Source: Citrobacter phage Shae_phiSM | Sequence record: OR565851 | Direction: 5' to 3' (one strand) | Length of the DNA stretch: 36,753 nucleotides | Part shown: in pieces, positions 165 through 27,661 of the stretch | How the letters are laid out: every line of letters begins with the position of its first letter | Position numbering within the stretch: position 1 is the first letter of the stretch | Position numbers and translations under genes: made by a program | The notes under the pieces: model-generated | What the model was told of the DNA's origin: nothing | Seen by the model: the letters and a program-made list of their open reading frames with translations, nothing else | Database searches by the model: none

Positions 165-1058
165 CTATTTCCAGTTACAAGCAGCTTGAAGCGGTTTTAG
201 CGCGTTTGACAGGCCGTTTAAATTGAAAGTTGCACTTACGGGGCTCTCATTATAAGGCGTTATTTTTGTATACATTTTGCTTGAGTTGGCTAGTTTTCGG
301 ATGAAATCAATGTCATTACCTTTATAAAAAACAGCCTTTGTATCTGTAGATACTAGCCAGTTTCGCTCAACTGCTTTCTGTTTATCAAGGCGATAAAGCA
401 TGCTGGTTTGTTCAAGGCCTAAATATACATCCCAACTAAGAAATACTTCGGTTTTCTTTTCTCGGCAAGCTATAAAAAGAGTAGGAGTAACCGCTTCTCC
501 AAATGGAGTTCTGATATAATCATCACTTTCTAACGATAAAATTACATTTTTCGAATCATCAATTGGCGATGTAGTAATGGATGTGTGCCATTTTCCTACA
601 TCTGTGGCTTTCTCTAATTTTGATTCAGCTTGAACGATTTTATCCTGTGGGAATAGTTTATCGTAGCAGTTTAGTCTGGCTTCTTTATCATTTTCTGCAC
701 GACATTTAGATATCTCAGAAAGATTTGGTTGCTGAGCCTCTGTTGTTACTGGCTTTTCCGTTTTAGATTTTGAGTTTACAGATGGAGTAAATGTTGGAGA
801 AAAGAAACGATCATAACAAGATAAACGTCTATCATCATCTTTCTCATCAGGGCATTGATCTCTGCTTTCGAATTTTTCAGCAACTTTCGTTCGAGTCGGT
901 TGTATTGACTTATCGTAACAAGAAAGTCTGTCTTTATTATTTTCTATTGCTCGGCACTGGAGTACTGCATTGAAGTTCTTATGTTCAGTTGCTGCGTGAA
1001 CAGGCAGTACACTAATTGATATAAATGATGCACCTATAGAAAAAATTATATTTTTCAT
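165..1058 (-). CDS. secreted protein with three Cys-containing repeats and a ~150-aa C-terminal domain, function unknown
   Basis: 297-aa ORF; N-terminal signal peptide MKNIIFSIGASFISISVLPVHA; three repeats of C-x(9-10)-RL-x-CYD-[KR]; SD AAGGG upstream; about 35% GC, far below the phage backbone. Confidence 0.75.
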   Translation of the reverse strand: MKNIIFSIGASFISISVLPVHAATEHKNFNAVLQCRAIENNKDRLSCYDKSIQPTRTKVAEKFESRDQCPDEKDDDRRLSCYDRFFSPTFTPSVNSKSKTEKPVTTEAQQPNLSEISKCRAENDKEARLNCYDKLFPQDKIVQAESKLEKATDVGKWHTSITTSPIDDSKNVILSLESDDYIRTPFGEAVTPTLFIACREKKTEVFLSWDVYLGLEQTSMLYRLDKQKAVERNWLVSTDTKAVFYKGNDIDFIRKLANSSKMYTKITPYNESPVSATFNLNGLSNALKPLQAACNWK

Positions 1059-2293: not shown

Positions 2294-3403
2294 TCACTCT
2301 GTTTCCGCTATCCATTCCGGGATTTTTGCCTCAAGCTCAAGCTGCGTGGTAAAGCCGCTGTTATCAATGGTGTGCTCGGCTTTTGCAATAATCCAGTCCT
2401 GATTATCAATCTCGCTTTTAAATCCTGTTACCGTGCCATGCATTTCGGGGTAGAGTTCTGCGCGTCCACGTGCCAGTGTGATGGAGAATGATGCGGCTCC
2501 GCGTTGTAGCTGCTGCCACTTTGCCGCCGCTGCGCGTCTTGCTGCCTGCTCGTTCTGATAAGTCTTGCGTAACACAAACACATTGCCTTCTGCGCCTTCC
2601 ATATAATCACCTTCACGGCTGCTGCTTTTCTCTTTTTTGGGTTTTGGCGGTTTGCGGCGTTTCACGCTGACTTTTTTCTTTTTCCCGTAATTAAGATCAA
2701 GCCAGTAGGCGCGTACCCCCGTATACGCCTCGCGGTCAGCAATGCGGAACTGATGGCGATCGCTGCTGCTGCGTGTGATGGCGAACGATGGCAACGGCTG
2801 GCCCTGTGCGTTCACGCCACCGCCGGGCATGATGAATAACAGATTACCTCTTTTTACCGTGGTGATTGCACCCAACATTTCCGCCATGCGCGTAAGGAAG
2901 GACATGTCGCTTTCTTCGGTCTGGTCGGCGTGGTCGATTTCGATATCCATCAGCATTTCGCTGATTTGCGGTTTCAGACCATACCGATGAGCGATGGCGG
3001 ATACCACGCGCTCAACGGTCACATCATGCCAGGACACCTCACGTTTAACGTTAAATTCATCCCGAAAATCTGCGCTTCTGGCTGAAACCGTCAGCCTGTC
3101 CGGCGGTCCTTCGTGAGCGATTTCATCAACAATGTAAGTGCCTTTTTCTGTCAGCGGTTCTCCTTTCCAGCCAATGAGAACCGTCAGGCGCGCGCCCCGT
3201 GGCGGTAGCTGCAACTGACCATCTGCATCATCCATCGTGATGGTGAGCTGGTCCGCCTCAAATCCCCGGTTGTCGGTCAGTGACAGGCTCATCAGGCGCT
3301 CTGCCACGCCTGACAGCGTTTTACCCTCCGCGAGAATATCAAAATCCGGCATTTTCACGGGGTCTGTGCCCTGACTGAGCAATTGCATGGTGGTGTCGGT
3401 CAT
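2294..3403 (-). CDS. D: tail protein D (late control gene D family)
   Basis: ORF 2294..3535 trimmed to the ATG at 3403 (MTDTTMQLLSQ...) preceded by SD GGAGGG; gpD-like length and lysine-rich mid region; lies directly upstream of ogr as in P2. Confidence 0.8.
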   Translation of the reverse strand: MTDTTMQLLSQGTDPVKMPDFDILAEGKTLSGVAERLMSLSLTDNRGFEADQLTITMDDADGQLQLPPRGARLTVLIGWKGEPLTEKGTYIVDEIAHEGPPDRLTVSARSADFRDEFNVKREVSWHDVTVERVVSAIAHRYGLKPQISEMLMDIEIDHADQTEESDMSFLTRMAEMLGAITTVKRGNLLFIMPGGGVNAQGQPLPSFAITRSSSDRHQFRIADREAYTGVRAYWLDLNYGKKKKVSVKRRKPPKPKKEKSSSREGDYMEGAEGNVFVLRKTYQNEQAARRAAAAKWQQLQRGAASFSITLARGRAELYPEMHGTVTGFKSEIDNQDWIIAKAEHTIDNSGFTTQLELEAKIPEWIAETE

Positions 3404-3560
3404 CTGTTCCCTCCCTGTGCGGCATGGTCGCATGTGCGTGCGGAGGGGGTTACTGCTTTTTGTTGTCGCCGGGTCGGGAGAACGGCGCAGGGGTGAGATT
3501 ACGCGCGTGGTAGGTGATGATTGTTGCTGAATCATTTAACGGATACAAGGGGCTGAAGCT
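3404..3560. promoter_or_regulatory. divergent intergenic region between D and FI, presumed to hold late promoters
   Basis: 157-bp gap between divergently oriented D and FI starts; I could not identify an Ogr-type TGT-N12-ACA dyad by eye. Confidence 0.3.
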
Positions 3561-4745
3561 ATGAGTGAAACTCGTTTTCATGGTGCCCGTGTTACGGAAA
3601 ATACCGACCTGGTAACAGCGATTAACGATGTTGATTCCAGCGTTATCGGTATCGTGGCAACGGCGGATGATGCGGACGCGGAGCTGTTCCCGCTGAACAA
3701 GCCCACACTGCTGACCCGCGTCAATGACGTGCTGGGAAAATGCGGAACAACGGGGACGCTTTATCGTGCGCTTAAGGCCATCGCAGACCAGGTGAGCACA
3801 AAGGTGATCGTCGTTCGCGTGGCTGAACACAAAGAAGAAGACGGAAAGACGCAGGATCAACTGGTTATCGGTGGTTCTGAGGATGACGGCAGCTATACGG
3901 GGATGTATGCGCTGCTTGTTGCAGAGCAGGATGAAAGCATCGGATACCGTCCGCGTATTCTGGCCGCGCCGGAGCTGGACACGGAGGCGGTAACAAAATC
4001 CCTGTGCGTGATTGCGGGTAAACTGCGCGCGTTTGTGTATGCCACATGTCATGGTTGTAACACGATGGCTGAGGCGATTACCTACCGCCAGAAATTCAAC
4101 GAACGTGAGGTGATGCTCTTATGGCCTGACTTCATCGCCTACAACCCGAAAAGTGGCAAAAACGAAACGTTCCCCGCGCCTGCTTATGCGTGCGGCCTTC
4201 GTGCGTACATTGACCATGAGCAGGGCTGGCACAAATCGCTGTCCAACGTTCCGGTTAAAAATGTGCTGGGAATGTCCAGGCATGTGTTCTGGTCGTTGCA
4301 GGCCGAAGACAGTGATGCCAACAGCCTCAATAACAAAGAAATCACGACCATTATTCGTCGCAACGGGCTCCGCTTCTGGGGCAACCGCACACCGGAAACG
4401 AACGCCTACATCTTTGAGGTGTATACCCGAACCGCACAGGTGCTGGCTGATTCAATTGCGGAAGCGCAGTTTGAAACCATCGACAGTCCACTGACGCCTG
4501 CGAACGTGAAGGATGTTATCAGTGCCATCAGGGCAAAACTGGATTCGCTGGTTACTGCCGGGAAACTGATTGGTGCGGAGTGCTGGTATGACGTGGTGGA
4601 TAACGGCACCACGAATTTACGTCAGGGACGTGTGCGTATTCGCTACAAATATACGCCCGTTCCGCCACTGGAAGACATGGAGCTTTACCAGACGTTTACT
4701 GATGAATTCTTTGGTCCCGCATTTGCGGTGCTGGGAGGTGCCTGA
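3561..4745 (+). CDS. FI: contractile tail sheath protein
   Basis: 394-aa ORF with SD AAGGGG; P2 FI-like sequence and size; stop overlaps the FII start (ATGA). Confidence 0.9.
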   Translation: MSETRFHGARVTENTDLVTAINDVDSSVIGIVATADDADAELFPLNKPTLLTRVNDVLGKCGTTGTLYRALKAIADQVSTKVIVVRVAEHKEEDGKTQDQLVIGGSEDDGSYTGMYALLVAEQDESIGYRPRILAAPELDTEAVTKSLCVIAGKLRAFVYATCHGCNTMAEAITYRQKFNEREVMLLWPDFIAYNPKSGKNETFPAPAYACGLRAYIDHEQGWHKSLSNVPVKNVLGMSRHVFWSLQAEDSDANSLNNKEITTIIRRNGLRFWGNRTPETNAYIFEVYTRTAQVLADSIAEAQFETIDSPLTPANVKDVISAIRAKLDSLVTAGKLIGAECWYDVVDNGTTNLRQGRVRIRYKYTPVPPLEDMELYQTFTDEFFGPAFAVLGGA

Positions 4746-5257
4746 TGGCTGTACCAAAACATCTTCGCTTTTTTACGTTGTTTGTGGATGGTGAAAACGA
4801 AGTGGGTAAAGTGACATCCGTCACGCCGCCCAAACTGACGCGCAAAACCGACAGCTATCGTGGTGGTGGCATGATGGGGGCGGTAAGTATTGATCTCGGT
4901 CTGGACGACTCCGCGCTTGATGCGAGTTTTGTTATGGGGGGAGCTGTTCGTGCGCTGTTCCTTAAATATGGCGGCACGATTGACGGCACGCTGCTGCGTT
5001 TTGCGGGTGAATACTACACCGATGCAGAAAGCGATCTGTATGAAATCGAGATGCGCGGGCGTGTGACGGAAATTGATATGGGGGAAGCCAAACAGGGCGA
5101 AGCCACATCACACACTTACGCTGTCAAAAACACCTACTACAAGCTGAGCGTTAACGATCGCCCGCTGTGGGAAATCGACCTGTTGAACCACATCTACCGG
5201 AAGGACGGCAAGGACATTGTGCCTGACCGTATCCGTTCCGCGCTTGGGCTTGGCTGA
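4745..5257 (+). CDS. FII: tail tube protein
   Basis: 170-aa ORF immediately after the sheath gene; P2 FII-like. Confidence 0.9.
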   Translation: MAVPKHLRFFTLFVDGENEVGKVTSVTPPKLTRKTDSYRGGGMMGAVSIDLGLDDSALDASFVMGGAVRALFLKYGGTIDGTLLRFAGEYYTDAESDLYEIEMRGRVTEIDMGEAKQGEATSHTYAVKNTYYKLSVNDRPLWEIDLLNHIYRKDGKDIVPDRIRSALGLG

Positions 5258-5312
5258 TAAGTAATATGCAGGCGGCGCAGTGCGTCGCCTCTGACTGAAA
5301 AGGAGACAACTG

Positions 5313-5687
5313 ATGAAAGACATCGATACTGAAACCCGGAATAACACCGTGGCGGATGATGTGACGGCAGGTGAGGATATGGCTGTCGAACGTGGCGTAA
5401 AACTGACCCGACCAATTGAGCGTGGTGGCGAAAAAATCACGTATGTGGAGATCACCGGGGCTATTGAGCAGGCTGGATCCCTGCGTGGTCTGTCGCTGTC
5501 TGATGTGCTGAATCTGAAAGCGGATACCATGTTCACGCTGTTGCCTCGCGTGACCTCGCCACGACTGGATGAAGTGATGATTAAAAAAATGTCGTCACGC
5601 GATTTTATTCAGTTGTGCGCTGTGGCTGTAAATTTTATGAGCGAGCCAGACTCTGGCGCGAAGAGCGTGCAGGAGACGGCAGCGTAA
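5313..5687 (+). CDS. E: tail assembly chaperone E
   Basis: 124-aa ORF with SD AAGGAGA, located between tube and tape-measure genes. Confidence 0.85.
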   Translation: MKDIDTETRNNTVADDVTAGEDMAVERGVKLTRPIERGGEKITYVEITGAIEQAGSLRGLSLSDVLNLKADTMFTLLPRVTSPRLDEVMIKKMSSRDFIQLCAVAVNFMSEPDSGAKSVQETAA

Positions 5688-5851
5688 TCACCCTGGTGTG
5701 CTTTGAGCACATCGAAGATCTGGTGGCGGATATTGCCGCTATTTTTAACTGGTCGCCCGCCGAAATCTTCATGATGACGCCCGGCGAAGTGGTTAGCTGG
5801 CGCGAGCGGGCGGCACTTCGCAGCGGGAATGCAGATAATGAAGACTCTTGA
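5582..5851 (+). CDS. E': E' extension made by programmed -1 frameshift (E+E' fusion)
   Basis: -1 frame is open from 5585 (stop at 5582-5584 just upstream) to 5851 and overlaps the start of T; the A7 run at 5583-5589 (tt-aaaaaaa-tg) lies in the E frame at the overlap; same layout as E/E' in P2 and G/GT in lambda. Confidence 0.6.
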
Positions 5852-8645
5852 TATCCGGGTCGCTTTCAGCGCCGTTGACAGGCTGACCCGGCCTGCCGAA
5901 AACGCCCGCCGCCTGATGGGGCAGTTTGGTGACTCCATCCAGCGAACTCAGGGGGCGATCAAAAATCTCGAGCGTCAGGCGCGTTCATTTGAGCGCGCCC
6001 GTGACGCTGTCAGTAAAGCGGATGCTGGCATATTGAAAGCACGACGCCAGCTTAACGCCCTTAATCAGTTACAACGCACGGGTACAGTGCTCAGCGAAAA
6101 ACAACAAAAGCTGATGCAGCAGTTAAGCACCCGGCTTGAACGCCTGAATGAATCGCGCACACGGGAAATTCAGAAAATGCGGGAACTTGGCGGAGAGCTG
6201 AAACGCCACGGCATTTCCCTGACAGGCAGCGATAACACCATCCAGCAGGCCATCAGACGCACCGAACAGTATAACAACCAGCTTGAACGCGAACGGCAGG
6301 CGCTTGCGCGTGTAACGCGGGCGCGTGAGCGGTATTCGCGCGCGCAGGAAACAGCGGGAAAACTGAAAACAGGTGGTGCGCTGGCAATTGGTGCGGCAGC
6401 GGCGGGCGGCTATGCTGCCGGGCGTTTTTTGCAGCCTGCGATCGGGTTCGGCAAAGAGATGTCCCGCGTTCAGGCACTGACGCGAATCGACCAGAACAGC
6501 CCGCAGTTTAAGGCGATGCGTGAGCAGGCGTTAAAACTTGGCTCTGAAACGCAGTTCACCGCAGGCGATGCCGCCAGTGGACAGGCATTTCTTGCAATGG
6601 CTGGCTTCACTCCGCAGGCCATTCAGGCTGCGCTTCCCGGCGTGCTGAGCATGGCAACGGCTGGCGGTATGGATCTCGGCGAGACGGCAGATATTGGCTC
6701 AAATATCCTGACGCAGTTCGGCCTTTCTGCTGACCAGATGGACCGGGTCGGTGACACACTCACCGCAGCGTTTACCCGTACCAACACTGACCTTCGCGCA
6801 CTGGGCGAAACCATGAAATATGCAGGTCCGGTGGCGGGCAAGCTGGGAATATCGCTGGAGCAGGCCGCAGCGATGGCGGGCGTGCTGGCGAATATGGGTA
6901 TCAGGGGAAGTGATGCCGGGACGGCAATGCGTGCCAGCCTGGCTCGTCTGGCATCACCGCCAAAGGCGGCAGCAGAGGCGCTGAAAGAGCTGGGCGTGTC
7001 TGTCTCGGATGCCGGGGGCAAAATGCGCCCGATGGAGGATGTGCTGGCCGACCTTTATAAAGCCACCCGCAAATACGGGGAAGTTGACCGGGTATCGTTC
7101 TTTAAGGACATTGCCGGAGAAGAGGCTTTCACATCGTTTATGGCGCTCGTTGATGCAGCGGGTGACGGTTCCTTACCCAAACTGAGAAAAGAACTTGAAG
7201 GCGCGCGCGGTGAGGCTGAACGCACAGCAAAGGTTATGGCCAACAACCTTGACGGCGATCTGAAATCACTCGGCAGTGCATGGGAAGGGGTGCGCATCCG
7301 CATTGCAGATCTGATTGACGGTCCGCTGCGTTCTGTCACGCAGTGGCTCACGCGGGTGGTATCAAGGGTGACGGCGCTGGCGCAGGCCCATCCGGCACTG
7401 ACGCGCCAGCTACTGATAGCAGGCGGTGCGTTGCTGGCAATGACTGCAACGGTTGGCTCGTTGTCGCTGGCTATTGGTGTGCTTGCTGGTCCGCTGGCAA
7501 AACTGCGTCTTGGTTTTTCTCTCCTGACCGGATCAATGAATGCTGTCATGGTCCTGCCAGCGCTGTGGGGAATGGTGACGGGTTCCGTTTCTTTACTGGG
7601 AGGCGCTATCGGGGCGCTGTTCAGTCCGGTTGGTCTTATCGTGGCTGCGCTTGCCGGAGCTGCCGTTCTTATCTGGAAATACTGGGATCCCATCAGGGCA
7701 TTTTTTGCCGGGGTGTTCAGCGGGATTATGGAAAGGCTGACCCCGCTGCGCGAAACCTTTGAACGGTTTGGTCCTGTTTTTGACGCAGTCGGAAGCGGGA
7801 TCAGCCAGGTGTTTAACTGGTTTAAATCGCTGCTGTCACCGATGGAGTCCAGCAAGGAAACGCTGGATAAATGTACCAGTGCTGGCGAGATATTCGGTAA
7901 CGTTCTTGGCGGTGCGTTACAGCTTGTTCTGACACCTGCAAAAATGCTACTGGATACGCTGGCGTGGATACTTGAAAAACTTGGCGTCCTTCCGGATGAA
8001 GCGGAAAAGGCGCGCAAGAAAATCGAAGACGCACAGCGTGCGGCCATTCTTCAGGACAAGGTTGCCTTGCTTCAGGGGGACCTGGCGAAAATCAATCCGC
8101 CGAAGCCTGTGGAAAATGGCAATGGCACCGGAGGTGATAAACCCAAAGACAACAAACCGCTCACAGACAGCAATACCGGGACGCTACGCAGACTCAGCAA
8201 AATTGCTGATAACACAGGTAAGCTGGTTGATGAGACGAAAAAACGCATTGGCCCCGGCGATATTGTCTTTAAGAACCTGCCCCGCGCACTGGCTGTTCGT
8301 GGGGAGTGGCAGGAGCGGAAGATTGCGCAGGTCAGTAAGCCTGCCCCCGCAATTAATATCACACCCGTGGTCCCGGCTCCGCTGCCTCCGGCGCTGGTCC
8401 CTGTTGTTGCGGCCAGCTCCCGCCCGGTGGCGGAGGCCATACGATCGCCAGTGGCATCAGTTCCTGCAGCTTCCCGTAATCGGGAGCCGGTTGCCTCCGG
8501 ATTTGGCGGTGAAATTCATGTTCATCTGCATAACGTTGTTACGCAGAATCCCCGCGAACTTGCGAAACTGGTCGGTGAAATGGTCAGGGCAGAAATGGAA
8601 CGGCGCGCCCGTGCCGGGCGTGGCAGTTTTTACGATAAAGATTGA
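5829..8645 (+). CDS. T: tail tape measure protein
   Basis: 938-aa ORF, coiled-coil-rich N-terminus, Ala/Gly-rich hydrophobic middle; position after E/E'. Confidence 0.9.
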   Translation: MQIMKTLDIRVAFSAVDRLTRPAENARRLMGQFGDSIQRTQGAIKNLERQARSFERARDAVSKADAGILKARRQLNALNQLQRTGTVLSEKQQKLMQQLSTRLERLNESRTREIQKMRELGGELKRHGISLTGSDNTIQQAIRRTEQYNNQLERERQALARVTRARERYSRAQETAGKLKTGGALAIGAAAAGGYAAGRFLQPAIGFGKEMSRVQALTRIDQNSPQFKAMREQALKLGSETQFTAGDAASGQAFLAMAGFTPQAIQAALPGVLSMATAGGMDLGETADIGSNILTQFGLSADQMDRVGDTLTAAFTRTNTDLRALGETMKYAGPVAGKLGISLEQAAAMAGVLANMGIRGSDAGTAMRASLARLASPPKAAAEALKELGVSVSDAGGKMRPMEDVLADLYKATRKYGEVDRVSFFKDIAGEEAFTSFMALVDAAGDGSLPKLRKELEGARGEAERTAKVMANNLDGDLKSLGSAWEGVRIRIADLIDGPLRSVTQWLTRVVSRVTALAQAHPALTRQLLIAGGALLAMTATVGSLSLAIGVLAGPLAKLRLGFSLLTGSMNAVMVLPALWGMVTGSVSLLGGAIGALFSPVGLIVAALAGAAVLIWKYWDPIRAFFAGVFSGIMERLTPLRETFERFGPVFDAVGSGISQVFNWFKSLLSPMESSKETLDKCTSAGEIFGNVLGGALQLVLTPAKMLLDTLAWILEKLGVLPDEAEKARKKIEDAQRAAILQDKVALLQGDLAKINPPKPVENGNGTGGDKPKDNKPLTDSNTGTLRRLSKIADNTGKLVDETKKRIGPGDIVFKNLPRALAVRGEWQERKIAQVSKPAPAINITPVVPAPLPPALVPVVAASSRPVAEAIRSPVASVPAASRNREPVASGFGGEIHVHLHNVVTQNPRELAKLVGEMVRAEMERRARAGRGSFYDKD

Positions 8646-8657
8646 GGAGTCATGGCC

Positions 8658-9146
8658 ATGATGATGATCTACGGCATGTTTGTTTTTGAGCTGCGCACGC
8701 TGCCGCATCAGCAGTTACAGCAAAACAAAAGCTGGCGGCATGTGAAAAATGAACGCGTTAACCGTTCAGCAAGCTGGCAGTATATCGGTGCAGGAGATGA
8801 TCGCATCGTTCTTTCTGGTGTGCTTTATCCTGAAATTACAGGTGGCGAAGTATCGCTGTCGCTGCTGACCACGCAGGCGTATACAGGACGACCCTGGCCT
8901 CTGATTGATGGCGTCGGGCAGATTTACGGCATGTATGTGCTGACTGAAACGAATACGACCCGTTCCGAGTTTGATCGCTACGGTAAGGCGAAAAAGATAG
9001 AATTTTCACTGACCCTTGAACGCTGTGATGAGGATTTGCGGGAGCGCCTGCAATCCTCATCGTTCAGTGATATGCTATCCGGCTTCAAAGATAAGGTGAC
9101 ATCATCTCTTAACAGCGCGGCCAGTTCAGTTAAAGGGCTGTTCTGA
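8658..9146 (+). CDS. U: tail protein U
   Basis: MMMIYGMFVFELRTLPHQQ...; SD GAGGAG sits 8 nt before the ATG at 8658 (ORF track begins at 8652); P2 gpU-like size. Confidence 0.85.
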   Translation: MMMIYGMFVFELRTLPHQQLQQNKSWRHVKNERVNRSASWQYIGAGDDRIVLSGVLYPEITGGEVSLSLLTTQAYTGRPWPLIDGVGQIYGMYVLTETNTTRSEFDRYGKAKKIEFSLTLERCDEDLRERLQSSSFSDMLSGFKDKVTSSLNSAASSVKGLF

Positions 9147-9154
9147 TTTAACAC

Positions 9155-9190
9155 AAAAACCGCTAATGGTCAGATTAGCGGTTTTCATTT
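9155..9190. terminator. bidirectional rho-independent terminator between convergent U and invertase genes
   Basis: aaaaaccgctaat-ggtcag-attagcggtttt: 12-bp perfect stem flanked by an A-run and a T-run; the invertase stop codon lies in the stem. Confidence 0.7.
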
Positions 9191-9774
9191 TCCTGAGTCT
9201 GCCCGGTTGTTTCTTCAGTCTGTATATCGCCTACAGGGTGATAACGATAAATCGTCGATGTGCCAATGCCGTAAATTATTGCCAGTTGTTTTCTGTCGTG
9301 CCCGTTTTTGATTAGCCTTGCTATTTGCTCATGCTGTTCTTTTGTCAGCTTCGGTCGACGTCCGCCTGTGCGCCCCCTTGCGCGCGCTGCCGCCAGCCCG
9401 GCCAGTGTACGTTCAACAATTAATTCACGTTCCATTTCAGCCAGGGCACCCATCACGTGGAAGAAAAAACGCCCCATTGGAGAAGATGTGTCTATGCTGT
9501 CGGTCAGACTGCGAAAATTAATCCCTCGCTCCCGTAGTTCCCCGACGAGAGAAATCAGATGTTTCATGCTTCGCCCGAGGCGATCCAGTTTCCAGACAAC
9601 CAGCGTGTCACCTTTTTGAAGGCGCTTTAAAGCGCGTTTTAATCCCGGTCGGTCTGTCTTTGTCCCGCTTAATTTATCTTCAAATATTTGTTCACATCCT
9701 GCACAAACAAGAGCGTTTCGTTGCAGGTCTGTATTCTGGTCATTTGTTGATACCCTTACATAGCCAATCAGCAC
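9175..9774 (-). CDS. serine DNA invertase (Gin/Hin/Cin/Pin family)
   Basis: ORF 9175..9792 trimmed to GTG at 9774 (SD GGGAGA upstream); begins LIGYVRVSTNDQNTDLQRNAL... with the catalytic-Ser motif, a resolvase domain and a C-terminal HTH; adjacent to a gix/hix-like crossover site. Confidence 0.9.
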   Translation of the reverse strand: MLIGYVRVSTNDQNTDLQRNALVCAGCEQIFEDKLSGTKTDRPGLKRALKRLQKGDTLVVWKLDRLGRSMKHLISLVGELRERGINFRSLTDSIDTSSPMGRFFFHVMGALAEMERELIVERTLAGLAAARARGRTGGRRPKLTKEQHEQIARLIKNGHDRKQLAIIYGIGTSTIYRYHPVGDIQTEETTGQTQENENR

Positions 9775-9828
9775 ACTGAATCTCCCGTCCAAAAGCGCAA
9801 ATCATGCCATGCAGGCCAGAAACGGCCA

Positions 9829-9854
9829 TTATTTAAAACCTCGGTTTACGAGAA
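9829..9854. repeat. gix/hix-like crossover site 1 (left end of invertible segment)
   Basis: ttatttaaaacctcggtttacgagaa; inverted copy at 12507-12532; shared core aacctcggtttac; resembles invertase crossover sites as I remember them. Confidence 0.75.
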
Positions 9855-10550
9855 CTCGGCACAAGCGGGGAGAAAATACCGTTACTCAGTACAGCGAATA
9901 CCTGGACTAATCGACAAACATTCAGCGGTGGCCTTTCTGGGGAACTGTCCGGCAATGCCGCTACTGCAACAAAGCTGAAAACAGCACGAAAAATTGCTGG
10001 AGTTGGTTTTGATGGTTCTAGCGATATTTCAATTAGTGCCAAAAATGTCAATGCATTTGCACTCCGACAAACAGGTAATACTGTTAATGGTGATACATCC
10101 GTTGGATGGAATTGGGATAGTGGTGCATATAACGCCCTGATTGGTGGTGCATCTGCATTAATTCTTCACTTTAATATAAATGCTGGTAGCTGTCCTGCCG
10201 TACAATTCCGTGTGAATTATAAAAATGGTGGCATTTCCTACAGGTCAGCTCGTGATGGTTATGGGTTTGAATTAGGTTGGTCAGATTTCTATACCACGAC
10301 ACGAAAACCATCAGCGGGAGATGTTGGTGCATATACGCAGGCAGAATGTAACTCAAGGTTTATTACAGGTATTCGCCTTGGCGGTCTGTCATCTGTTCAG
10401 ACATGGAATGGTCCCGGCTGGTCTGACAGGTCAGGTTATGTCGTTACGGGTTCAGTTAACGGAAACCGTGATGAATTAATTGATACAACTCAGGCAAGGC
10501 CAATTCAGTATTGCATTAATGGAACGTGGTATAACGCGGGGAGTATTTAA
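9837..10550 (+). CDS. silent alternative tail-fibre C-terminal cassette (no start; fuses to H on inversion)
   Basis: Frame open from 9837 (just after a stop) through the crossover core to 10550; encodes NLGLRELGTSGEK...SGGLSGE... and ends INGTWYNAGSI, parallel to the current H C-terminus ...INGTWYNVAQV; core ctc-ggt-tta is in the same frame as in H. Confidence 0.7.
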   Translation, partial: NLGLRELGTSGEKIPLLSTANTWTNRQTFSGGLSGELSGNAATATKLKTARKIAGVGFDGSSDISISAKNVNAFALRQTGNTVNGDTSVGWNWDSGAYNALIGGASALILHFNINAGSCPAVQFRVNYKNGGISYRSARDGYGFELGWSDFYTTTRKPSAGDVGAYTQAECNSRFITGIRLGGLSSVQTWNGPGWSDRSGYVVTGSVNGNRDELIDTTQARPIQYCINGTWYNAGSI

Positions 10551-10552
10551 TT

Positions 10553-11086
10553 ATGATGCACTTAAAAAATATTACTGCTGGCAACCCTAAAACAAAAGAG
10601 CAATACCAGCTAACAAAGCAATTTAACATCAAATGGCTTTATACAGAGGATGGGAAAAACTGGTATGAGGAACAAAAGAACTTTCAGCCTGATACGTTGA
10701 AAATGGTCTATGACCACAACGACGTTATTATTTGTATTGAAAAGGATGTTTCAGCAATTAATCCAGAAGGCGCAAGCGTCGTTGAGGTTCCTGATATTAC
10801 AGCAAATCGCCGGGCTGATATTTCGGGTAAATGGATGTTCAAAGATGGCGTAGTGATAAAGCGAACTTATACCGAGGAGGAACAGAGGCAGCAGGCAGAG
10901 AATGAAAAGCAAAGCCTATTGCAACTTGTCAGGGATAAAACCCAGCTATGGGACTCACAGCTACGGCTGGGTATCATTTCCAACGAGAATAAACAAAAAT
11001 TAACCGAGTGGATGCTCTATGCGCAGAAGGTCGAATCCACAGACACCTCCAGCCTGCCAGTAACGTTTCCAGAACAACCAGAATGA
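10553..11086 (+). CDS. tail fibre assembly protein, alternative (silent orientation)
   Basis: 177 aa, [22 protein letters not shown]..., paralogue of the 11115..11642 gene; directly follows the alternative C-terminal cassette. Confidence 0.85.
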   Translation: MMHLKNITAGNPKTKEQYQLTKQFNIKWLYTEDGKNWYEEQKNFQPDTLKMVYDHNDVIICIEKDVSAINPEGASVVEVPDITANRRADISGKWMFKDGVVIKRTYTEEEQRQQAENEKQSLLQLVRDKTQLWDSQLRLGIISNENKQKLTEWMLYAQKVESTDTSSLPVTFPEQPE

Positions 11087-11114
11087 AACAAGGCCCGCTA
11101 TCGGGCCTTAATTT

Positions 11115-11642
11115 TTACTCAGGCTTTTGTGGCCATTCGGGATTTGCTGTATCCACACGGCTGACCAGAACGCTGTAGCGTTCCCATGACTCCAGTCGTG
11201 TGCGTTCCTCATCCGTCGCCATATTCAGCCTGACAGCGCGTTCCAGTGGCTGAATAACGCTTTCAGCTTCAGAAAGCAACGCGACCTTTTGTGATTCGGC
11301 CTGTTGTTGCTGTTCGTCTGCTGTATAAATCCGCTTAAACACAGTTCCGTCCTTAAACATCCACTTCCCTGAATCATCGGCACGACGATTGGCTGTTATA
11401 TCAGGAACTTCAACGACGCTATAGCCTTCAGGGTTAAGCGTGGAGGCATCTTTGGTGATGGCGACAATAATATTATTCTCGTCATAAAGAATTTTTATTG
11501 TGTCTTCCTGAAAGTTCTTTAATTCCTCGTACCAGTTTTTCCCGTCTTCGGACCATAACCAGATAACATCAAAATTCTTTGTTAGCTGATATTGTTCTTT
11601 TGTTTTTGGATTTCCGGACTTAATATTTTTTAAATGCTGCAT
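11115..11642 (-). CDS. G: tail fibre assembly protein (currently expressed orientation)
   Basis: 175 aa, [22 protein letters not shown]...; directly downstream of H. Confidence 0.85.
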
Positions 11643-11645
11643 AAT

Positions 11646-13664
11646 TTACACCTGTGCGACGTTATACCATGTGCCATTGATGTATTTTTGTATTGGTCTG
11701 AAGATGGCTTCATCATCGCCATCTACTTCACCAATGATTCTTAATCCGGTAATTGCGTGTCCGGCTTTTTCATAACGACCACCACGCGCCATCAATTGAA
11801 CAACACGCGTACCCAGGCGAACATCTTTTACATAGCGTGAATCAAAATTCCCCCAGTTGCTGGGCTGTATCTGACCGTTAACAGAAAATATTACCGAGTT
11901 ATCTGTATTTCGCTGGCTATAGAAATGCCATCCTGCCTCATCGCCTAACTCTGCAACTACTGGACGGGTTGAAGCACCCCATAAATTAAACGTTGCATTC
12001 TTTGTGGAGGTGTTGGAGCTGGATAGCGAGAACTTTTTACTATCACCTGCCTGAATGTTTTTAAAAGCAATAGCAACTCCATTCTGAAAGCGGAATACTC
12101 GCTGACTATTAGCGTAAACATCCAGAATACCATCACCATTCTGTTTGAATCCGGTGTCATTATCACCAAGAACAATAGAGCTACCACCTAACGCATTCGT
12201 CGTACCAACTCCAAGACTGCCATTAATGACGGCATTTACCAGAATATTTAGTGCATCCCATTTCAGCGTCATCAGGTCTTTTGTTGTGGTGCTCTGGCGG
12301 CTTCTCCATTTGAAATATTCATTGCCGTTGTCGCCTGTTTCAAACCACATGTATGAATCAGTGTCACCATCAGCATCATTTTTAAATCCAATCTTCGCCC
12401 AGTCAGTATTTCGAATCCAGGCAAGGATTGAGTCATTTTCAAAAGTAAGCCCACCGGACAAGGTATCGCCATTTTTTTGCACGGCGTTACCAGCCCTGTT
12501 TACCGTTTCCTGTAAACCGAGGTATTCGATAACGGCGGCAACGGTCGATTTCGCAAGAATATCCCGCCCGACTTTTGTCAGAGTTGCCAGGCTGGCGACA
12601 TCATTCCCCGTAAAATACGGAAACCTGTCTGCCGCAGTAGCAAGCCCGGCCAGCGCCGTCAGGGTGGCATCTTTCGGTTGCTTACCCGCAAGCGCGTTAG
12701 TCATGGTGGTCGCAAAATTCGGGTCGTTGCCCAACGCCGCCGCCAGCTCGTTCAGCGTGTTCAGTGCATCAGGTGACGAATCTACAAGGGCGGCAATCGC
12801 AGCCATAACGAAAGCCGTGTTTGCGATTTGGGTATTATTCGTTCCCTGTCGCGCAGTTGGTGTTGTTGGCGTTCCGGTCAGCGCAGGACTGTTTAAGGGC
12901 GCTTTCTTGTTCGTTTCATCCATTACCGCCTTAACCGCTTTCGATGTCGCGGCCAGTGTTTCAGACGTGCTGTTGGTGGCACTACTGAGCTGGACTATCC
13001 CTTTTTGTGCCGTCGTGGCGTCCTGAGCGGTATATTTTGCGTTAGCAAGGTCATACGCGGCCTTTACTGCTTTCGGCGTTGCAGCCTGCGTTTCAGACAC
13101 GCTGTTAGTGGCGCTACTGAGTTGAACAAAGCCTTTTGCGGTCAGCGAGGCGTCCGGGTGACGTCGTGACTGTTCATGCTCTTTCAGTTTGTCATCCACG
13201 TAATCCACTGTGGCCATCACCATGGTGTTATCCACGGTAAGCGCCACGGTGGCTGTGCTGGATACGGTCAGAATGGTGCGAAATGTTTGTGCACGTCCGG
13301 ACCCTTCGGCAACGGTTGGCTTGTAACTTTCGGCAGTATTGCCCACCGCGATTAAATCGCCGTGCTCATCAAACACACCAATTTCCCGGATCCAGAATCC
13401 GCCCGTTTCAGGAGGAATAACCAGCTCCGCAATAATGCGGTTCTGATGTGTTGCGTCCAGGATGACGCGATTAACAGTATGTCGCCACACCTCATGCACC
13501 AGACGGGTCTGCTTACTGTCTGGTGTGGGCAACGTGCCGCCACCGTCGCCCACGGCCATATGAGTCAGGCGGACAGGCTTACCATCTGGCGCGGCTGCCT
13601 GCGCTAATTTTTTTGCACCCGTATCGGTGATAACGGTTTTAAATTTTCGTGTTGTGGTACTCAT
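11646..13664 (-). CDS. H: tail fibre protein H; constant N-terminus outside and variable C-terminus inside the invertible segment
   Basis: 672-aa ORF; the crossover site at 12507-12532 lies inside the coding region (encodes ...IEYLGLQETV...). Confidence 0.9.
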   Translation of the reverse strand: MSTTTRKFKTVITDTGAKKLAQAAAPDGKPVRLTHMAVGDGGGTLPTPDSKQTRLVHEVWRHTVNRVILDATHQNRIIAELVIPPETGGFWIREIGVFDEHGDLIAVGNTAESYKPTVAEGSGRAQTFRTILTVSSTATVALTVDNTMVMATVDYVDDKLKEHEQSRRHPDASLTAKGFVQLSSATNSVSETQAATPKAVKAAYDLANAKYTAQDATTAQKGIVQLSSATNSTSETLAATSKAVKAVMDETNKKAPLNSPALTGTPTTPTARQGTNNTQIANTAFVMAAIAALVDSSPDALNTLNELAAALGNDPNFATTMTNALAGKQPKDATLTALAGLATAADRFPYFTGNDVASLATLTKVGRDILAKSTVAAVIEYLGLQETVNRAGNAVQKNGDTLSGGLTFENDSILAWIRNTDWAKIGFKNDADGDTDSYMWFETGDNGNEYFKWRSRQSTTTKDLMTLKWDALNILVNAVINGSLGVGTTNALGGSSIVLGDNDTGFKQNGDGILDVYANSQRVFRFQNGVAIAFKNIQAGDSKKFSLSSSNTSTKNATFNLWGASTRPVVAELGDEAGWHFYSQRNTDNSVIFSVNGQIQPSNWGNFDSRYVKDVRLGTRVVQLMARGGRYEKAGHAITGLRIIGEVDGDDEAIFRPIQKYINGTWYNVAQV
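12507..12532. repeat. gix/hix-like crossover site 2 (inside H)
   Basis: ttcctgtaaaccgaggtattcgataa; reverse complement matches site 1 at about 21 of 26 positions, with an identical 13-bp core. Confidence 0.75.
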
Positions 13665-13666
13665 GC

Positions 13667-14197
13667 TTAATCGCCTGGATAAATGGTAATAACTTCACCG
13701 TCATAAGTTGCCGCCGCTGCGAAAATATCCCCTGGAATTTCCTGAATGATATTCAGCCCTGTCATGTGGCGGCTGACCGGGCGGGCATCAGCAATCAACC
13801 GCTCCATTTCCAGATACATTTCCTCCGTCACGCCACTGTCCAGTGTGCCGACTTCAACGGTAAATGTTCCCGGTTCTCCGCCGAACTCCCACCACTCAGA
13901 CACGCGAATGAGGTATCCCAGCGGTTCAATGGCCCTGCGCAGTGCGCTGATGGTCCCTTTGTGTCGGTGTATCAGCCATGCATCACGAATAACCTGTCGC
14001 TTTGTCTCTTCCGGCCAGTTGCGATCCCAGCGGTCAACGGAAAATGCCCAGGCGAGATAAGGCAGCAGATGCACCGGGCAGGTATCCGGCGACCACAGTG
14101 TGTTGAGGTCTACCGGAATGTCTGTAATGCGTGTTCCGATGGCTTCGGCACAACGCATGAAATTGCTGGCTGATGGTGGTAACAACGAATTACTCAT
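13667..14197 (-). CDS. I: baseplate assembly protein I
   Basis: ORF trimmed to the ATG at 14197 (MSNSLLPP...); 8-bp overlap with the J stop; P2 gpI-like. Confidence 0.8.
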   Translation of the reverse strand: MSNSLLPPSASNFMRCAEAIGTRITDIPVDLNTLWSPDTCPVHLLPYLAWAFSVDRWDRNWPEETKRQVIRDAWLIHRHKGTISALRRAIEPLGYLIRVSEWWEFGGEPGTFTVEVGTLDSGVTEEMYLEMERLIADARPVSRHMTGLNIIQEIPGDIFAAAATYDGEVITIYPGD

Positions 14198-15086
14198 TGC
14201 GCCCACCTTCGCTGATGGTGAATGACTCACAGCGCGCCGCCTGTATGTCGCTGATGGCCATATTCTGTGTGGGTTCGATTATCTCCACGCGTTGCACACC
14301 GTGCACATGCAGTGCGGCAGCAATGGCGGACAACGCCACGTCCTGACCGATAAGCCCCTGCTCAGCCAGCCACTTCCTGAACGACGATTCAGCCGCAGCC
14401 AGAATAGGTTCGGATTCCGGGCCGGGATAAAAGTACAGTTTTGCATTCAGCCGCCATGTCACGATTCTGGCACTCTGTACGGTCAGGCGGTCGGCCACCG
14501 GGCGGGCATCCTCTGCATTCAGAACGGCGCTAACGGTATTAAGCAACGCCTCCGTTGCTGTGCCGTCGCCTTCAGTGGACAGGATGGAAACCGTCACATT
14601 TGCCGGAGACGGACTGATAGCCCGCGCATCACGCACCAGACCGCTGGCGCTGCGGGCAAAATACTCGTATGCACCTGACGGGCCAGCAACACTCAGGCCG
14701 TCGTACGCCCGCTGCGCCCGCAGTCTCAGCGAGGTGTCGCTCTCCATCACCGCGTCGGTGGTATCCGTTGCCGGAGTGATAACCAGGCGCTTTGTGTTCA
14801 TATTGCCCGCGAGGTTGTCCAGGTCTGTCCCGGCGCTGTGGCTTAACATGCAGGCGCGTGCACCCTCATTGACCCGCTGGCGTAACAGCATTTCACGAAA
14901 CGCTGTTGTCTGGGCGATAACGTTCAGTGGTTCCGATTCCAGCTCCAGCGCGGCGGAGACGGCTTCACGCTGTTCGGCGGGATAAGCCGCAATCATCATG
15001 GCCTTTGTGTCAGCCAGAATTGCCTCAAAGTCAGGCTCCGCGATGATGGCGGGTTCCGGTAACTGGGAAAGGTCAACGGCAGGCAT
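14190..15086 (-). CDS. J: baseplate assembly protein J
   Basis: 298-aa ORF in gpJ position and size. Confidence 0.85.
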   Translation of the reverse strand: MPAVDLSQLPEPAIIAEPDFEAILADTKAMMIAAYPAEQREAVSAALELESEPLNVIAQTTAFREMLLRQRVNEGARACMLSHSAGTDLDNLAGNMNTKRLVITPATDTTDAVMESDTSLRLRAQRAYDGLSVAGPSGAYEYFARSASGLVRDARAISPSPANVTVSILSTEGDGTATEALLNTVSAVLNAEDARPVADRLTVQSARIVTWRLNAKLYFYPGPESEPILAAAESSFRKWLAEQGLIGQDVALSAIAAALHVHGVQRVEIIEPTQNMAISDIQAARCESFTISEGGRNE

Positions 15087-25776: not shown

Positions 25777-25791
25777 ATGGGTGAAGGAAAG

Positions 25792-26295
25792 ATGACTCTG
25801 GATTCAACAGCGATACAAATCATTAGTAACGTGATAGTCCTGTTTGGCGTCATAGTTGCTATCTGCACGATTATCTATAACATTCGTACAGCCAAAAAAA
25901 CACAGACTGCTAATTTTTTATTTGAAAGTCGCCAGGACAAAGAATACCTGGAATCGCTACATCTTCTCAGACGCATTCATCGTTCAGGAAAATCGTTTCG
26001 TGCTTATGTCTTTCCCTGTGAAGGCGGGGTGATTACGGAAGAAGAGATGACTGAACGTCGCAAATTCCAGTACATTCTTAACTTTTATGAGAGAGTGGCC
26101 GTAAGTATCCGTGAAGGGATTTACGATGAAAGGATGATTAAGCGAACATCCTTTACAACGGTCGTTACGACTTATGATATTGCGGAACCCCTGATTAAAG
26201 CCATCAGAGAGGATACCCAATCAAAAACGGCTTACCAGGAATTTGAGTGGTTGGTGAAGAGATGGAAAGCCAGGCCACTTGAGAAAGATGTGTAG
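25792..26295 (+). CDS. membrane-anchored protein of unknown function (one N-terminal TM helix plus ~130-aa cytoplasmic domain); candidate defence/exclusion cargo
   Basis: ORF 25777..26295 trimmed to the ATG at 25792 (SD AAGGA); TM helix IQIISNVIVLFGVIVAICTIIYNI; about 40% GC; sits where P2 carries old/tin between gene A and the packaging genes. Confidence 0.7.
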   Translation: MTLDSTAIQIISNVIVLFGVIVAICTIIYNIRTAKKTQTANFLFESRQDKEYLESLHLLRRIHRSGKSFRAYVFPCEGGVITEEEMTERRKFQYILNFYERVAVSIREGIYDERMIKRTSFTTVVTTYDIAEPLIKAIREDTQSKTAYQEFEWLVKRWKARPLEKDV

Positions 26296-26701: not shown

Positions 26702-27661
26702 TTACTCCTTGTCCATTGCGTACAGCCCATTAACCAGAGCAAACTGTGGCACCCCGTCCGCGATGAAAGTCGCATTAACTCCGCAGGCTTCGCGGATAGC
26801 GGGTGCCACAATCTCCGCCCCGCCACCGACAACCATCACCCGCCCGTAACCCGAAAAACCCGCCAGCGCGCGGATCACGCGTTGTTTCAGTGTTTCTTCC
26901 TTTTCACGAATAACCGCCATCAGGCTGGCGTAATGCGCGTCATTGTGGATGTGCTGGCGCAACCAGGCTTCATCATGGCGATGTTCGATAATGGTATTGG
27001 CGATGTGGTGACTGGTACGCATACCGTTAGTGGCCATCACCGACAGTACGGCATCGGCCATCAGGGAAACGCCTACGTGTGGATCGCAAAACACCTGGCT
27101 GATACCTGCCAGTTGTCCCTGAACCTTTGCCACATCCAGCGTGGTTCCGCCCAAATCCACAATCAGCAGGGATTCAAACGGACTCATGTCAGCCAGTGCT
27201 TTAAAGCCAGCCGGAATGGATTCAGGCATAACCCGTACATTACGGATAGTGAATGCCTCACCGTTCTGGTACTCCACCGGGCGCATAACGTTCGCTTTTT
27301 TGCGGTTGATGTTGGTCATATCCGGCTGGGCGTTTGTGTCGAAATACTCGCTCAGTGGCAGGGTGACAACAACATCCACCTCCTGTGGCGTGATGCCTGA
27401 TTTGACCAGCGCGTGATGAATGGCAATGACATTCACATCGCTGTACTGGTATTGCGTGTCGGTCGTCTGGACAAAGCGATCGCTGACCGGATCAAAACCA
27501 TAGCGCACGCCATCAAGCATATAGTTCGCGGGCTGCGTGCCACCGAACGGCGCAGACCATTCCGACTTGAAGCTGTTCGGGCTGATGGCGTTGCGGCGTT
27601 CGCCGTTCTCAGTCCATGCCAGCTTGATGTTGGTGGAGCCGTCGTCGATACAAATTTTCAT
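26702..27661 (-). CDS. parM: ParM/StbA-like actin-type segregation ATPase
   Basis: 319 aa; MKICIDDGSTNIKLAW...YSDVNVIAIHHAL...LIVDLGGTTLDV...VMVVGGGAEI matches the ParM actin-fold motifs (R1 ParM begins MLVFIDDGSTNIKLQW from memory); SD AAGGA. Confidence 0.85.
   Translation of the reverse strand: MKICIDDGSTNIKLAWTENGERRNAISPNSFKSEWSAPFGGTQPANYMLDGVRYGFDPVSDRFVQTTDTQYQYSDVNVIAIHHALVKSGITPQEVDVVVTLPLSEYFDTNAQPDMTNINRKKANVMRPVEYQNGEAFTIRNVRVMPESIPAGFKALADMSPFESLLIVDLGGTTLDVAKVQGQLAGISQVFCDPHVGVSLMADAVLSVMATNGMRTSHHIANTIIEHRHDEAWLRQHIHNDAHYASLMAVIREKEETLKQRVIRALAGFSGYGRVMVVGGGAEIVAPAIREACGVNATFIADGVPQFALVNGLYAMDKE

Follow-up and report, generated by a model that had tools for sequence, protein, structure and literature searches.

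A Gin/Mu-type invertible segment that very probably switches the tail-fibre tip of a P88-like, P2-related temperate phage

Our analysis indicates that the tail-fibre region of Citrobacter phage Shae_phiSM (record OR565851) very probably undergoes Gin/Mu-type programmed inversion, which switches the receptor-binding tip of the tail fibre in a P88-like (Xuanwuvirus, P2-related) temperate phage. The window, i.e. the whole stretch of DNA analysed, comprises 36,753 nucleotides, and the anatomy of the locus, its reading frames, its homology to Gin, gix and the Mu G segment, and the exact core inversion in near-identical prophages were computed here. Switches of this coding-end type in tail fibres are classic bet-hedging host-range switches. 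The present one is of a known, textbook kind, and the phage type has already been sequenced and annotated.

The window is a complete phage genome, with an integrase, a GPA replication protein, sheath, tube, gpD and a full baseplate. It is a P88-like Xuanwuvirus that is 97% identical to phage P88_4B11, and this closest record is classified in Peduoviridae, genus Xuanwuvirus. The P2-type tail module proposed in the original prediction was recovered, with the baseplate and fibre genes V-W-J-I-H-G together with FI, FII, T, U and D, and with the P2 Pfam set (Tail_P2_I, Baseplate_J, Phage_P2_GpU, Phage_tube, Phage_sheath_1 and Phage_GPD). P88-type relatives share 97% identity with the window, both over the region and over 25 kb, and the gene order is kept in P88/P88_4B11 and in prophages of UTI89, NU14, IHE3034, SE11 and O145 strains. 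In the RefSeq annotation of these relatives, a DNA invertase gene is accompanied by two tail-fibre and two assembly genes. Most of them carry an extra 132-bp repeat unit in H, which gives a protein of 716 aa versus 672 aa in the window. The features of the switch region are as follows.

9175 to 9774, minus strand: Gin-type serine DNA invertase, 199 aa, with the most likely start at a GTG (Pfam Resolvase 1.4e-50 and HTH_7 4e-13)
9690 to 9752: putative Fis-dependent recombinational enhancer (sis), within the 5' coding part of the invertase gene
9829 to 9854: left gix-like recombination site, 22/26 to Mu gix, with the NU14/UTI89 and 33E/32F4 breakpoints inside its core
9837 to 10550, plus strand: silent, start-less alternative tail-fibre C-terminus (S'v-type), an open frame of 237 codons (Pfam gp37_C)
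10553 to 11086, plus strand: silent tail-fibre assembly chaperone (U'-type), 177 aa (Pfam Caudo_TAP 5.7e-36; 98% to Mu U')
11089 to 11110: bidirectional terminator-like hairpin between the convergent chaperone genes, with a GC-rich stem-loop and, on either strand, a T-run after it
11115 to 11642, minus strand: tail-fibre assembly chaperone (P2 G/Mu U type) of the expressed orientation, 175 aa (Pfam Caudo_TAP 6e-36)
11646 to 12520, minus strand: variable C-terminus of H in the present orientation (Sv), a P2-H-type tip encoded within the segment (H and P2 H share 89% identity across 666 aa)
12507 to 12532: right gix-like recombination site, inside H, 24/26 to Mu gix
12521 to 13664, minus strand: constant N-terminal part of H, about 381 codons, outside the segment (Pfam Phage_tail_fib and Phage_fiber_2)

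The original prediction had placed two inverted 26-bp sites at the ends of a 2.7-kb segment, and both were found where it put them. The left site is TTATTTAAAACCTCGGTTTACGAGAA and the right site, within H, is TTCCTGTAAACCGAGGTATTCGATAA; when they are aligned as inverted repeats, 21/26 positions agree. Both contain the exact core GTAAACCGAGGT, which is 12 nt long, a trivial discrepancy from the 13 bp claimed, and this 12-mer has just two occurrences in the window, namely the two sites. The crossover dinucleotides, TC at 9841-9842 on the left and GA at 12519-12520 on the right, are identical on the recombining strands, and the distance between the crossover centres is 2,678 bp, i.e. a 2.68-kb segment. 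Like the sites of Din-family recombinases, these are two inverted 26-bp sequences of imperfect dyad symmetry with the same central 2 bp. The prediction had also called for alignment to known sites; the matches to gix listed above, with gix read from the Mu record, compare with a chance expectation of ~2e-5 for 26-mers this gix-like in the window.

Hin moves a promoter, not coding ends, and the hin gene lies inside its own segment. That the window holds a Hin-type promoter switch, or a multi-site shufflon making several tips, is extremely improbable. Its crossover lies inside the H coding sequence and swaps 3' coding ends in frame, its invertase gene is outside the segment, and the promoter-like matches (3 versus 7.3 in shuffled sequence) include none that reads out across a site. 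A three-site, four-variant shufflon is indeed known from a P2-like prophage of EPEC E2348/69 (PMC4272514), but the 36.7-kb window has two sites only, in contrast to shufflons of the p15B Min type. A multi-inversion system was considered as well, and the further recombination sites sought across the window were not found: there is no third gix-like site, every other 26-mer matching gix at 17/26 positions or fewer.

Consistent with an exchange of coding ends in a Gin/Mu-type switch, H (11646-13664, minus strand, 672 aa) reads across the right site as ...VIEY/LGLQE... (the slash marks the junction) into one C-terminal variant, followed by its assembly gene at 11115-11642, as had been predicted. 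H is co-oriented with the upstream genes I, J, W and V, of which those with Tail_P2_I and Baseplate_J domains lie directly upstream on the same strand, and by analogy its constant part is probably transcribed together with them. In its proximal part Sv is almost the same as Mu S, from which it departs distally. The chaperone of this orientation matches PDB 5YVQ chain B (Mu U) at 8.8e-108; it is 57% identical to the silent chaperone, and the likeness resides mostly in the N-terminal two-thirds.

At the opposite end of the segment, the plus strand is open from 9837 to a stop at 10548-10550 without a start codon, and a TAA lies upstream in the outer half-site. Both the start-less alternative C-terminus and the second, reverse-oriented assembly gene of the original prediction are therefore present. 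Over residues 73-237, S'v shares 89% identity with the Mu S' tip and 88-90% with the tips of D108, P7 and P1, and S'v matches PDB 8JU3 (Mu S/S' fibre) at 7e-97. P88, as Mu does, matches the silent tip from residue 73 onward only. Because the first 72 residues of S'v are unrelated to Mu S', we infer how the alternative fibre folds and what its specificity would be. Both sites have the core in one and the same frame, and inversion in silico yielded an in-frame H of 617 aa, ...VIEY/LGLRELGTSGEK...GSI, in agreement with the in-frame fusion foreseen. The locus thus has the makeup of a G segment, with a constant 5' part outside and two opposed 3' parts, each with its own chaperone and both in frame; the Mu-like arrangement of an expressed and a silent cassette in a P2-type module has held up. 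The hairpin between the chaperone genes would terminate whichever cassette is expressed.

The invertase ORF spans 9175-9792. The true start is most likely the GTG at 9774 and not the TTG at 9792, because the N-terminus then becomes the Gin-like MLIGYVRVS and Mu gin has a GTG at the aligned position. The gene lies outside the invertible segment and adjoins it, as in Mu and P1. Its assignment to the Gin/Hin family was borne out by the Resolvase and HTH_7 domains, which provide the N-terminal resolvase-type catalytic domain and the C-terminal helix-turn-helix of Din-family recombinases. Chains of Gin crystal structures were matched at 3e-100, and both the catalytic Ser9, which falls within MLIGYVRVSTNDQ in the alignment to Gin structures 4M6F and 3UJ3, and the wild-type Met114 are present. 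Identity to Mu Gin is 85% overall, with 118/119 residues identical over residues 1-119 and ~58% identity over residues 120-181.

The first ~215 bp of the invertase gene differ from Mu gin at 3 positions, and the Mu enhancer reportedly lies within the 5' part of gin, as Kahmann and colleagues are said to have located it in 1985. Within the putative enhancer, two Fis-like motifs are centred at 9697 and 9745, 48 bp apart, one fitting the strict and the other a relaxed consensus; these are weak matches alone, and a degenerate Fis-motif scan is by itself uninformative, the strict motif occurring about 2 times per kb across the window.

The invertases Gin, Cin, Pin and Hin can substitute for one another, and related invertases encoded elsewhere in the host could also flip the segment. 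Two further proposals, both unlikely in our view, are that the P88-type invertase is a natural chimera with its own site preference, or that flipping in the prophage excludes other phages in the manner of PinQ/PinR. In the chimera, the catalytic and enhancer module of Gin would be followed, from about residue 120 on, by a DNA-binding domain that has diverged. Site preference should be read with the caveat that the DNA-binding domain is ~58% identical to that of Gin and that the outer half-sites, TTATTTAAAACC and TTATCGAATACC, are unlike their gix counterpart TTATCCAAAACC, from which they differ at 2 and 4 positions. Co-variation of the invertase domain and the sites, if it has occurred, would shield the switch in part from Gin, Pin and further Din invertases of the same cell.

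The Gin/Mu-type switch is evidently active in nature, and no feature of the sequence speaks against it. Some match to the region was found in 2,525 of 5,426 E. coli genomes. Full-length matches to the window arrangement occur in 184 complete genomes and those to the computed inverted one in 206, so that the two orientations are about equally frequent. Over 12,733 bp, NU14 and UTI89 differ only in that the 2,662 bp between the cores are exactly reverse-complemented (0 mismatches), and the same was found, with the same lengths and 0 mismatches, for 33E and 32F4. The relatives in this isogenic comparison carry sites and an invertase identical to those of the window, and the inversion ends inside the sites. 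The occurrence of a single orientation only, which the original prediction had named as grounds for refutation, is contradicted by this split and by the two exactly inverted near-isogenic pairs, which together form a clean, purely computational demonstration of an active switch. Recombination of the RecA type between the two chaperone arms (351 nt, 72% similar) was rejected as the source of inversion because the breakpoints of both isogenic pairs sit in the 12-nt cores. A literature search combining NU14, UTI89, prophage and inversion returned nothing, and the P88 host-range paper (PMC5285337) makes no mention of inversion or an invertase.

The same comparison bears on the idea of a frozen relic, in which the anatomy of a Gin switch is retained but the window copy no longer flips, through poor invertase expression or site drift, and the second cassette is a fossil. 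Deviation of the outer half-sites from gix would fit such decay, and relics do occur in the lineage, as P2 H carries a lone, non-functional gix-like sequence at the same codon (25/26 to the right site of the window). However, the invertase ORF is intact, with Ser9 present and 100% identity to the NU14 invertase, the sites are identical to those of NU14/UTI89, where near-isogenic strains differ by an exact inversion, the two silent ORFs are unbroken, with 89-98% identity to functional genes of Mu, and the orientations are split 184:206 across genomes. A relic is thus very improbable.

For the active switch, a mechanism can be proposed in which Fis/enhancer dependence, strand-exchange chemistry, late-operon expression and the change of host range are inferred from the Mu, P1 and Hin literature. 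Invertase dimers would bind both 26-bp gix-like sites and, by analogy, would be activated by the enhancer in the invertase's own 5' coding region bound by host Fis. Ser9 would then cut both sites at the central GA, one subunit pair would rotate by 180 degrees and the ends would be religated, so that the 2,678 bp between the crossover points would be flipped while the constant 5' part of H and the late promoter would remain outside. In the window orientation, H is predicted to end in the P2-H-type tip, followed by the Mu-U/P2-G-type chaperone; when inverted, it would be fused in frame at ...IEY/LGL... to the Mu/P1 S'-type tip, followed by the U' chaperone. A lysogen population would be expected to release two kinds of virion that recognise different LPS cores. 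Different adsorption specificity of the two orientations is likewise suggested by the 89-98% identity to Mu S'/U' and by a functional engineered P2-P1(S') fibre, in which P2 H(1-370) fused to P1 S' and supplied with U' retargets particles to Shigella flexneri (PMC9942202).

Alternatively, flipping of the segment in a prophage might mainly benefit the bacterium, for example through a fibre fragment at the surface or in the periplasm that blocks other phages. Tail-fibre inversion in cryptic prophages (PinQ, PinR) is reported to inhibit T2 adsorption (PMC12529663; bioRxiv 10.1101/2025.03.28.646004), and prophages matching the region are widespread in E. coli, as the above count indicates. We consider such a host-serving role highly improbable here: the window holds an entire phage genome, of a type that is inducible (PMC6456863, PMC5285337), the switched gene sits in a late structural operon together with its constant part and its cognate chaperones, just as in Mu, and no separate promoter was predicted for the silent cassette.

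With respect to a switch that serves the phage, P88-like prophages are common in pathogenic E. coli, including UTI89, NU14, IHE3034 and O145 strains, and induced P88-like lysates should therefore hold two adsorption types, which bears on prophage spread and on P2/P88-type delivery particles. In RefSeq, the silent cassette is called a pseudogene or a hypothetical protein, and otherwise identical prophages get different H proteins. The two orientations are best treated as one locus by annotators and comparative-genomics pipelines.

P2 resembles the window in H, in the G-type chaperone that follows and in the upstream genes I, J and W, but has neither an invertase nor a second cassette. The tail block from sheath to gpU runs in opposite directions in the window and in P2; Gin-mediated inversion was considered as an explanation and set aside, as no gix-like site lies at its borders, and the orientation of the window is common to P88_4B11, NU14 and UTI89. 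Similar in organization are the P2-like prophages of EPEC E2348/69, in which a serine invertase adjoins convergent tip and chaperone cassettes and both orientations coexist in clonal cultures, as found by paired-end sequencing and PCR (Goldberg et al. 2014, PMC4272514). Their segments are different and smaller (~1.9-2.2 kb): the one at 2977580-2979467, considered as the same element and rejected, belongs to a remnant prophage whose genes are in the order of P2, and the other is the three-site, four-variant system described above. The C segment of P1/P7 with Cin, the P segment of e14 with Pin and Salmonella Hin share the invertase family and the 26-bp site type, and over its residues 73-237 the silent cassette shares 88-89% identity with the S' tips of P1 and P7, but the phage backbones of these systems differ from that of the window. 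The layout is that of the Mu G segment, with the invertase outside and adjacent, two 26-bp sites, Sc outside and two convergent tip-plus-chaperone cassettes inside; DNA identity to Mu is ~92% across 9418-12539 of the window (G segment and 5' part of gin). The Mu segment measures 3.06 kb between annotated boundaries versus 2.68 kb in the window, S'v is ~81 aa shorter than Mu S', and the distal tip of Sv is of the P2-H type, at 46% identity to Mu S overall. Unlike in Mu, the constant fibre part and the whole virion are P2-type.

The open reading frame list and a repeat search reproduced the anatomy of the original prediction, in which two inverted sites bound a segment carrying the 3' end of the tail-fibre gene H and a silent cassette, consisting of a start-less alternative tip and a second chaperone gene. 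The main features are as follows:

9175-9792, minus strand: serine recombinase (invertase) reading frame with Pfam Resolvase and HTH_7 domains
9829-9854: site 1, 26 bp, TTATTTAAAACCTCGGTTTACGAGAA, inside a 30-nt inverted repeat
9837-10550, plus strand: silent tip, a start-less open frame
11089-11110, bidirectional: terminator-like hairpin between the two convergent chaperone genes
11646-13664, minus strand: H, 672 aa, with a P2-type N-terminal collar-fibre domain and fibre repeats
12507-12532: site 2, 26 bp, TTCCTGTAAACCGAGGTATTCGATAA, inside the 30-nt inverted repeat

The arms of this repeat, which are 80% complementary, lie at 9825-9854 and 12507-12536, and the two sites match at 21 of 26 positions when compared as inverted repeats. 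Their exact common core is the 12-nt GTAAACCGAGGT, not 13 nt as originally predicted, and is confined to these two sites across the 36.7-kb window. Compared with gix, the 26-bp recombination site of Mu Gin, whose sequence was taken straight from the Mu record, site 2 showed 24/26 and site 1 22/26 matches, with a chance expectation for such matches in the window of ~2e-5 and a next-best 26-mer of 17/26. Din-family invertases need a matching central dinucleotide for inversion, and GA is central in both sites on the recombining strand.

The invertase gene likely starts at the GTG at 9774, which has GGGAGA just upstream and gives the N-terminus MLIGYVRVSTNDQ...; both the N-terminus and the GTG start are as in Mu gin. 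Its product matches the chains of Gin crystal structures (3e-100) and possesses both Ser9 and the wild-type Met114. The invertase (9175-9774, minus strand) is a mosaic, being identical to Mu Gin at 118 of 119 positions over residues 1-119 but diverged over residues 120-181 (about 58% identity), and it ends in an acidic, Thr/Gln-rich tail of 15 aa. DNA homology to Mu ends at ~9418, at the junction of the catalytic and DNA-binding domains. In addition, the convergent gpU and invertase genes are separated by a terminator-like hairpin, which is formed by a perfect 12-bp inverted repeat (AAAACCGCTAAT / ATTAGCGGTTTT, 9156-9185) and probably terminates both.

H shares 89% identity with P2 H over 666 aa, and P2 I-like and J-like genes lie upstream on the same strand. 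The H frame continues across site 2 (...VIEYLGLQE...) and is followed by a gene for a 175-aa Caudo_TAP chaperone matching Mu U (PDB 5YVQ_B, 8.8e-108). In the constant part of H, a tail-fibre repeat unit of 132 bp (44 aa) occurs twice (12928-13155), as it does in P2; most close relatives, including NU14, UTI89, P88_4B11 and many more, have an extra 132 bp here, and their H is 716 rather than 672 aa long. This would fit the presence of one additional unit and thus copy-number variation of the fibre-shaft repeat. On the silent side, residues 73-237 of the tip share 89% identity with the tip of Mu S' and 88-90% with the S' tips of D108, P7 and P1, and they match PDB 8JU3. Residues 1-72 (9837-10052) are unrelated to Mu S'; they resemble fibres from other P2-like phages of Escherichia and Yersinia (about 71% identity), and the silent cassette is thus itself a mosaic, about 81 aa shorter than S'v, the variable C-terminal part of Mu S'. 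The second chaperone, encoded after the silent tip, has 177 aa and is 98% identical to Mu U'. When 9841-12520 was inverted in silico as a frame test, H became an uninterrupted frame of 617 aa, in which ...AAVIEY is joined to LGLRELGTSGEK... and the stop follows ...WYNAGSI. Therefore, the key claim of the original prediction, that inversion would yield an in-frame H, proved correct in silico.

Two queries of 4,601 bp, one with the segment as in the window and one with it inverted in silico, were searched against all complete RefSeq E. coli genomes. Since no more than about 58% of a query can align on one strand with a genome of the opposite orientation, coverage of at least 80% in one place is diagnostic; by this measure, 184 genomes carried the window arrangement and 206 the inverted one. 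A cleaner test came from two near-isogenic pairs, the uropathogenic NU14 and UTI89 and the Swiss farm isolates 33E and 32F4, the chromosomes of the latter two differing by 2 bp in length. Each pair is identical over 12,733 bp except for an inverted stretch of 2,662 bp, which in both pairs is an exact reverse complement with 0 mismatches, bounded by the 12-nt cores. The sites of all four strains are those of the window, and the NU14 invertase is identical to that of the window. Such exact, core-bounded inversion is characteristic of conservative site-specific recombination at precisely these sites, and it excludes homologous exchange through the 351-nt chaperone arms. The predicted element is confirmed, and its reading as a switch is supported. 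Across the four strains, the RefSeq label of the silent cassette varies with orientation (a pseudogene with 'missing N-terminus', 'hypothetical protein' or 'phage tail fiber protein'), and automatic annotation gives H a different protein accession in prophages that are identical apart from orientation.

Based on homology, the whole system would be expected to work like Mu Gin. Each site would be bound by invertase dimers, and an enhancer within the 5' portion of the invertase gene, itself bound by Fis, would activate the synaptic tetramer on supercoiled DNA; Ser9 would then cleave at the central GA, followed by 180-degree subunit rotation and religation of the DNA (PMC3575834 and established knowledge). 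The putative enhancer region has only 3 differences from Mu in about 215 bp, and in it lie two Fis-like motifs at a spacing of 48 bp, motif evidence being weak alone. Inversion exchanges coding 3' ends with their chaperones rather than a promoter, since the segment includes neither the promoter nor the constant part of H. The alternative fibre is probably functional and of changed specificity, given its near-identity to Mu S'/U' and a published engineered fibre: with U' supplied, a fusion of P2 H(1-370) and the P1 S' tip retargeted particles to Shigella flexneri (PMC9942202).

The region is 97.4% identical to P88_4B11 (Xuanwuvirus, Peduoviridae) at 100% coverage and 94% identical to P88. Since the window matches P88_4B11 at 97% over 25 kb and also encodes an integrase, a GPA replication protein, sheath, tube and gpD, it is essentially a whole P88-like genome. 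Three genes are apparent cargo:

165-1058, minus strand: VasI-like (type VI secretion-associated) protein
25777-26295, plus strand: DUF4760 protein
26702-27661, minus strand: ParM-like actin-type segregation protein

Compared with P2, the sheath-tube-E-tape measure-gpU block (3561-9146, plus strand) is reversed, whereas gpD (2294-3535) and the V-W-J-I-H-G block (within 9175-15086), both on the minus strand, keep the P2 direction, and therefore the invertase and the switch sit at the convergence point. This arrangement is common to P88_4B11, NU14 and UTI89, and a 26-mer scan of the window against gix found no gix-like site at the block borders.

Switches of this kind are textbook systems, such as Mu G, P1 C and e14 P. 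The element itself is already known, and P88-type records are annotated with an invertase, two fibre genes and two assembly genes. In the Mu-like and P2-like prophages of EPEC E2348/69, coexisting orientations were found in clonal cultures by sequencing and PCR (PMC4272514); the one E2348/69 locus compared here lies in a remnant prophage and is a distinct segment of smaller size. A survey reported that a DNA invertase often occupies this hotspot of P2-like phages, with inversion of adjacent genes (bioRxiv 10.1101/2024.10.15.618418). We found no explicit description of a P88-like phage flipping in the literature, and the P88 host-range paper (PMC5285337) is silent on flipping; this gap is one of documentation, not of biology. 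The Mu G segment with gin and window 9418-12539, which covers the segment and the 5' 60% of the invertase gene, share about 92% DNA identity, and the module is in effect a P2-type H/G with a Mu-type S'/U'/gin unit attached. P2 itself (NC_001895.1) is without the invertase, the second site and the second cassette, but a solitary gix-like relic, TTCCTGTAAACCGAGATATTCGATAA, persists in its H at the same codon; this relic is 25/26 identical to site 2 and looks like a footprint of common ancestry between the P2 and Mu/P88 fibre modules.
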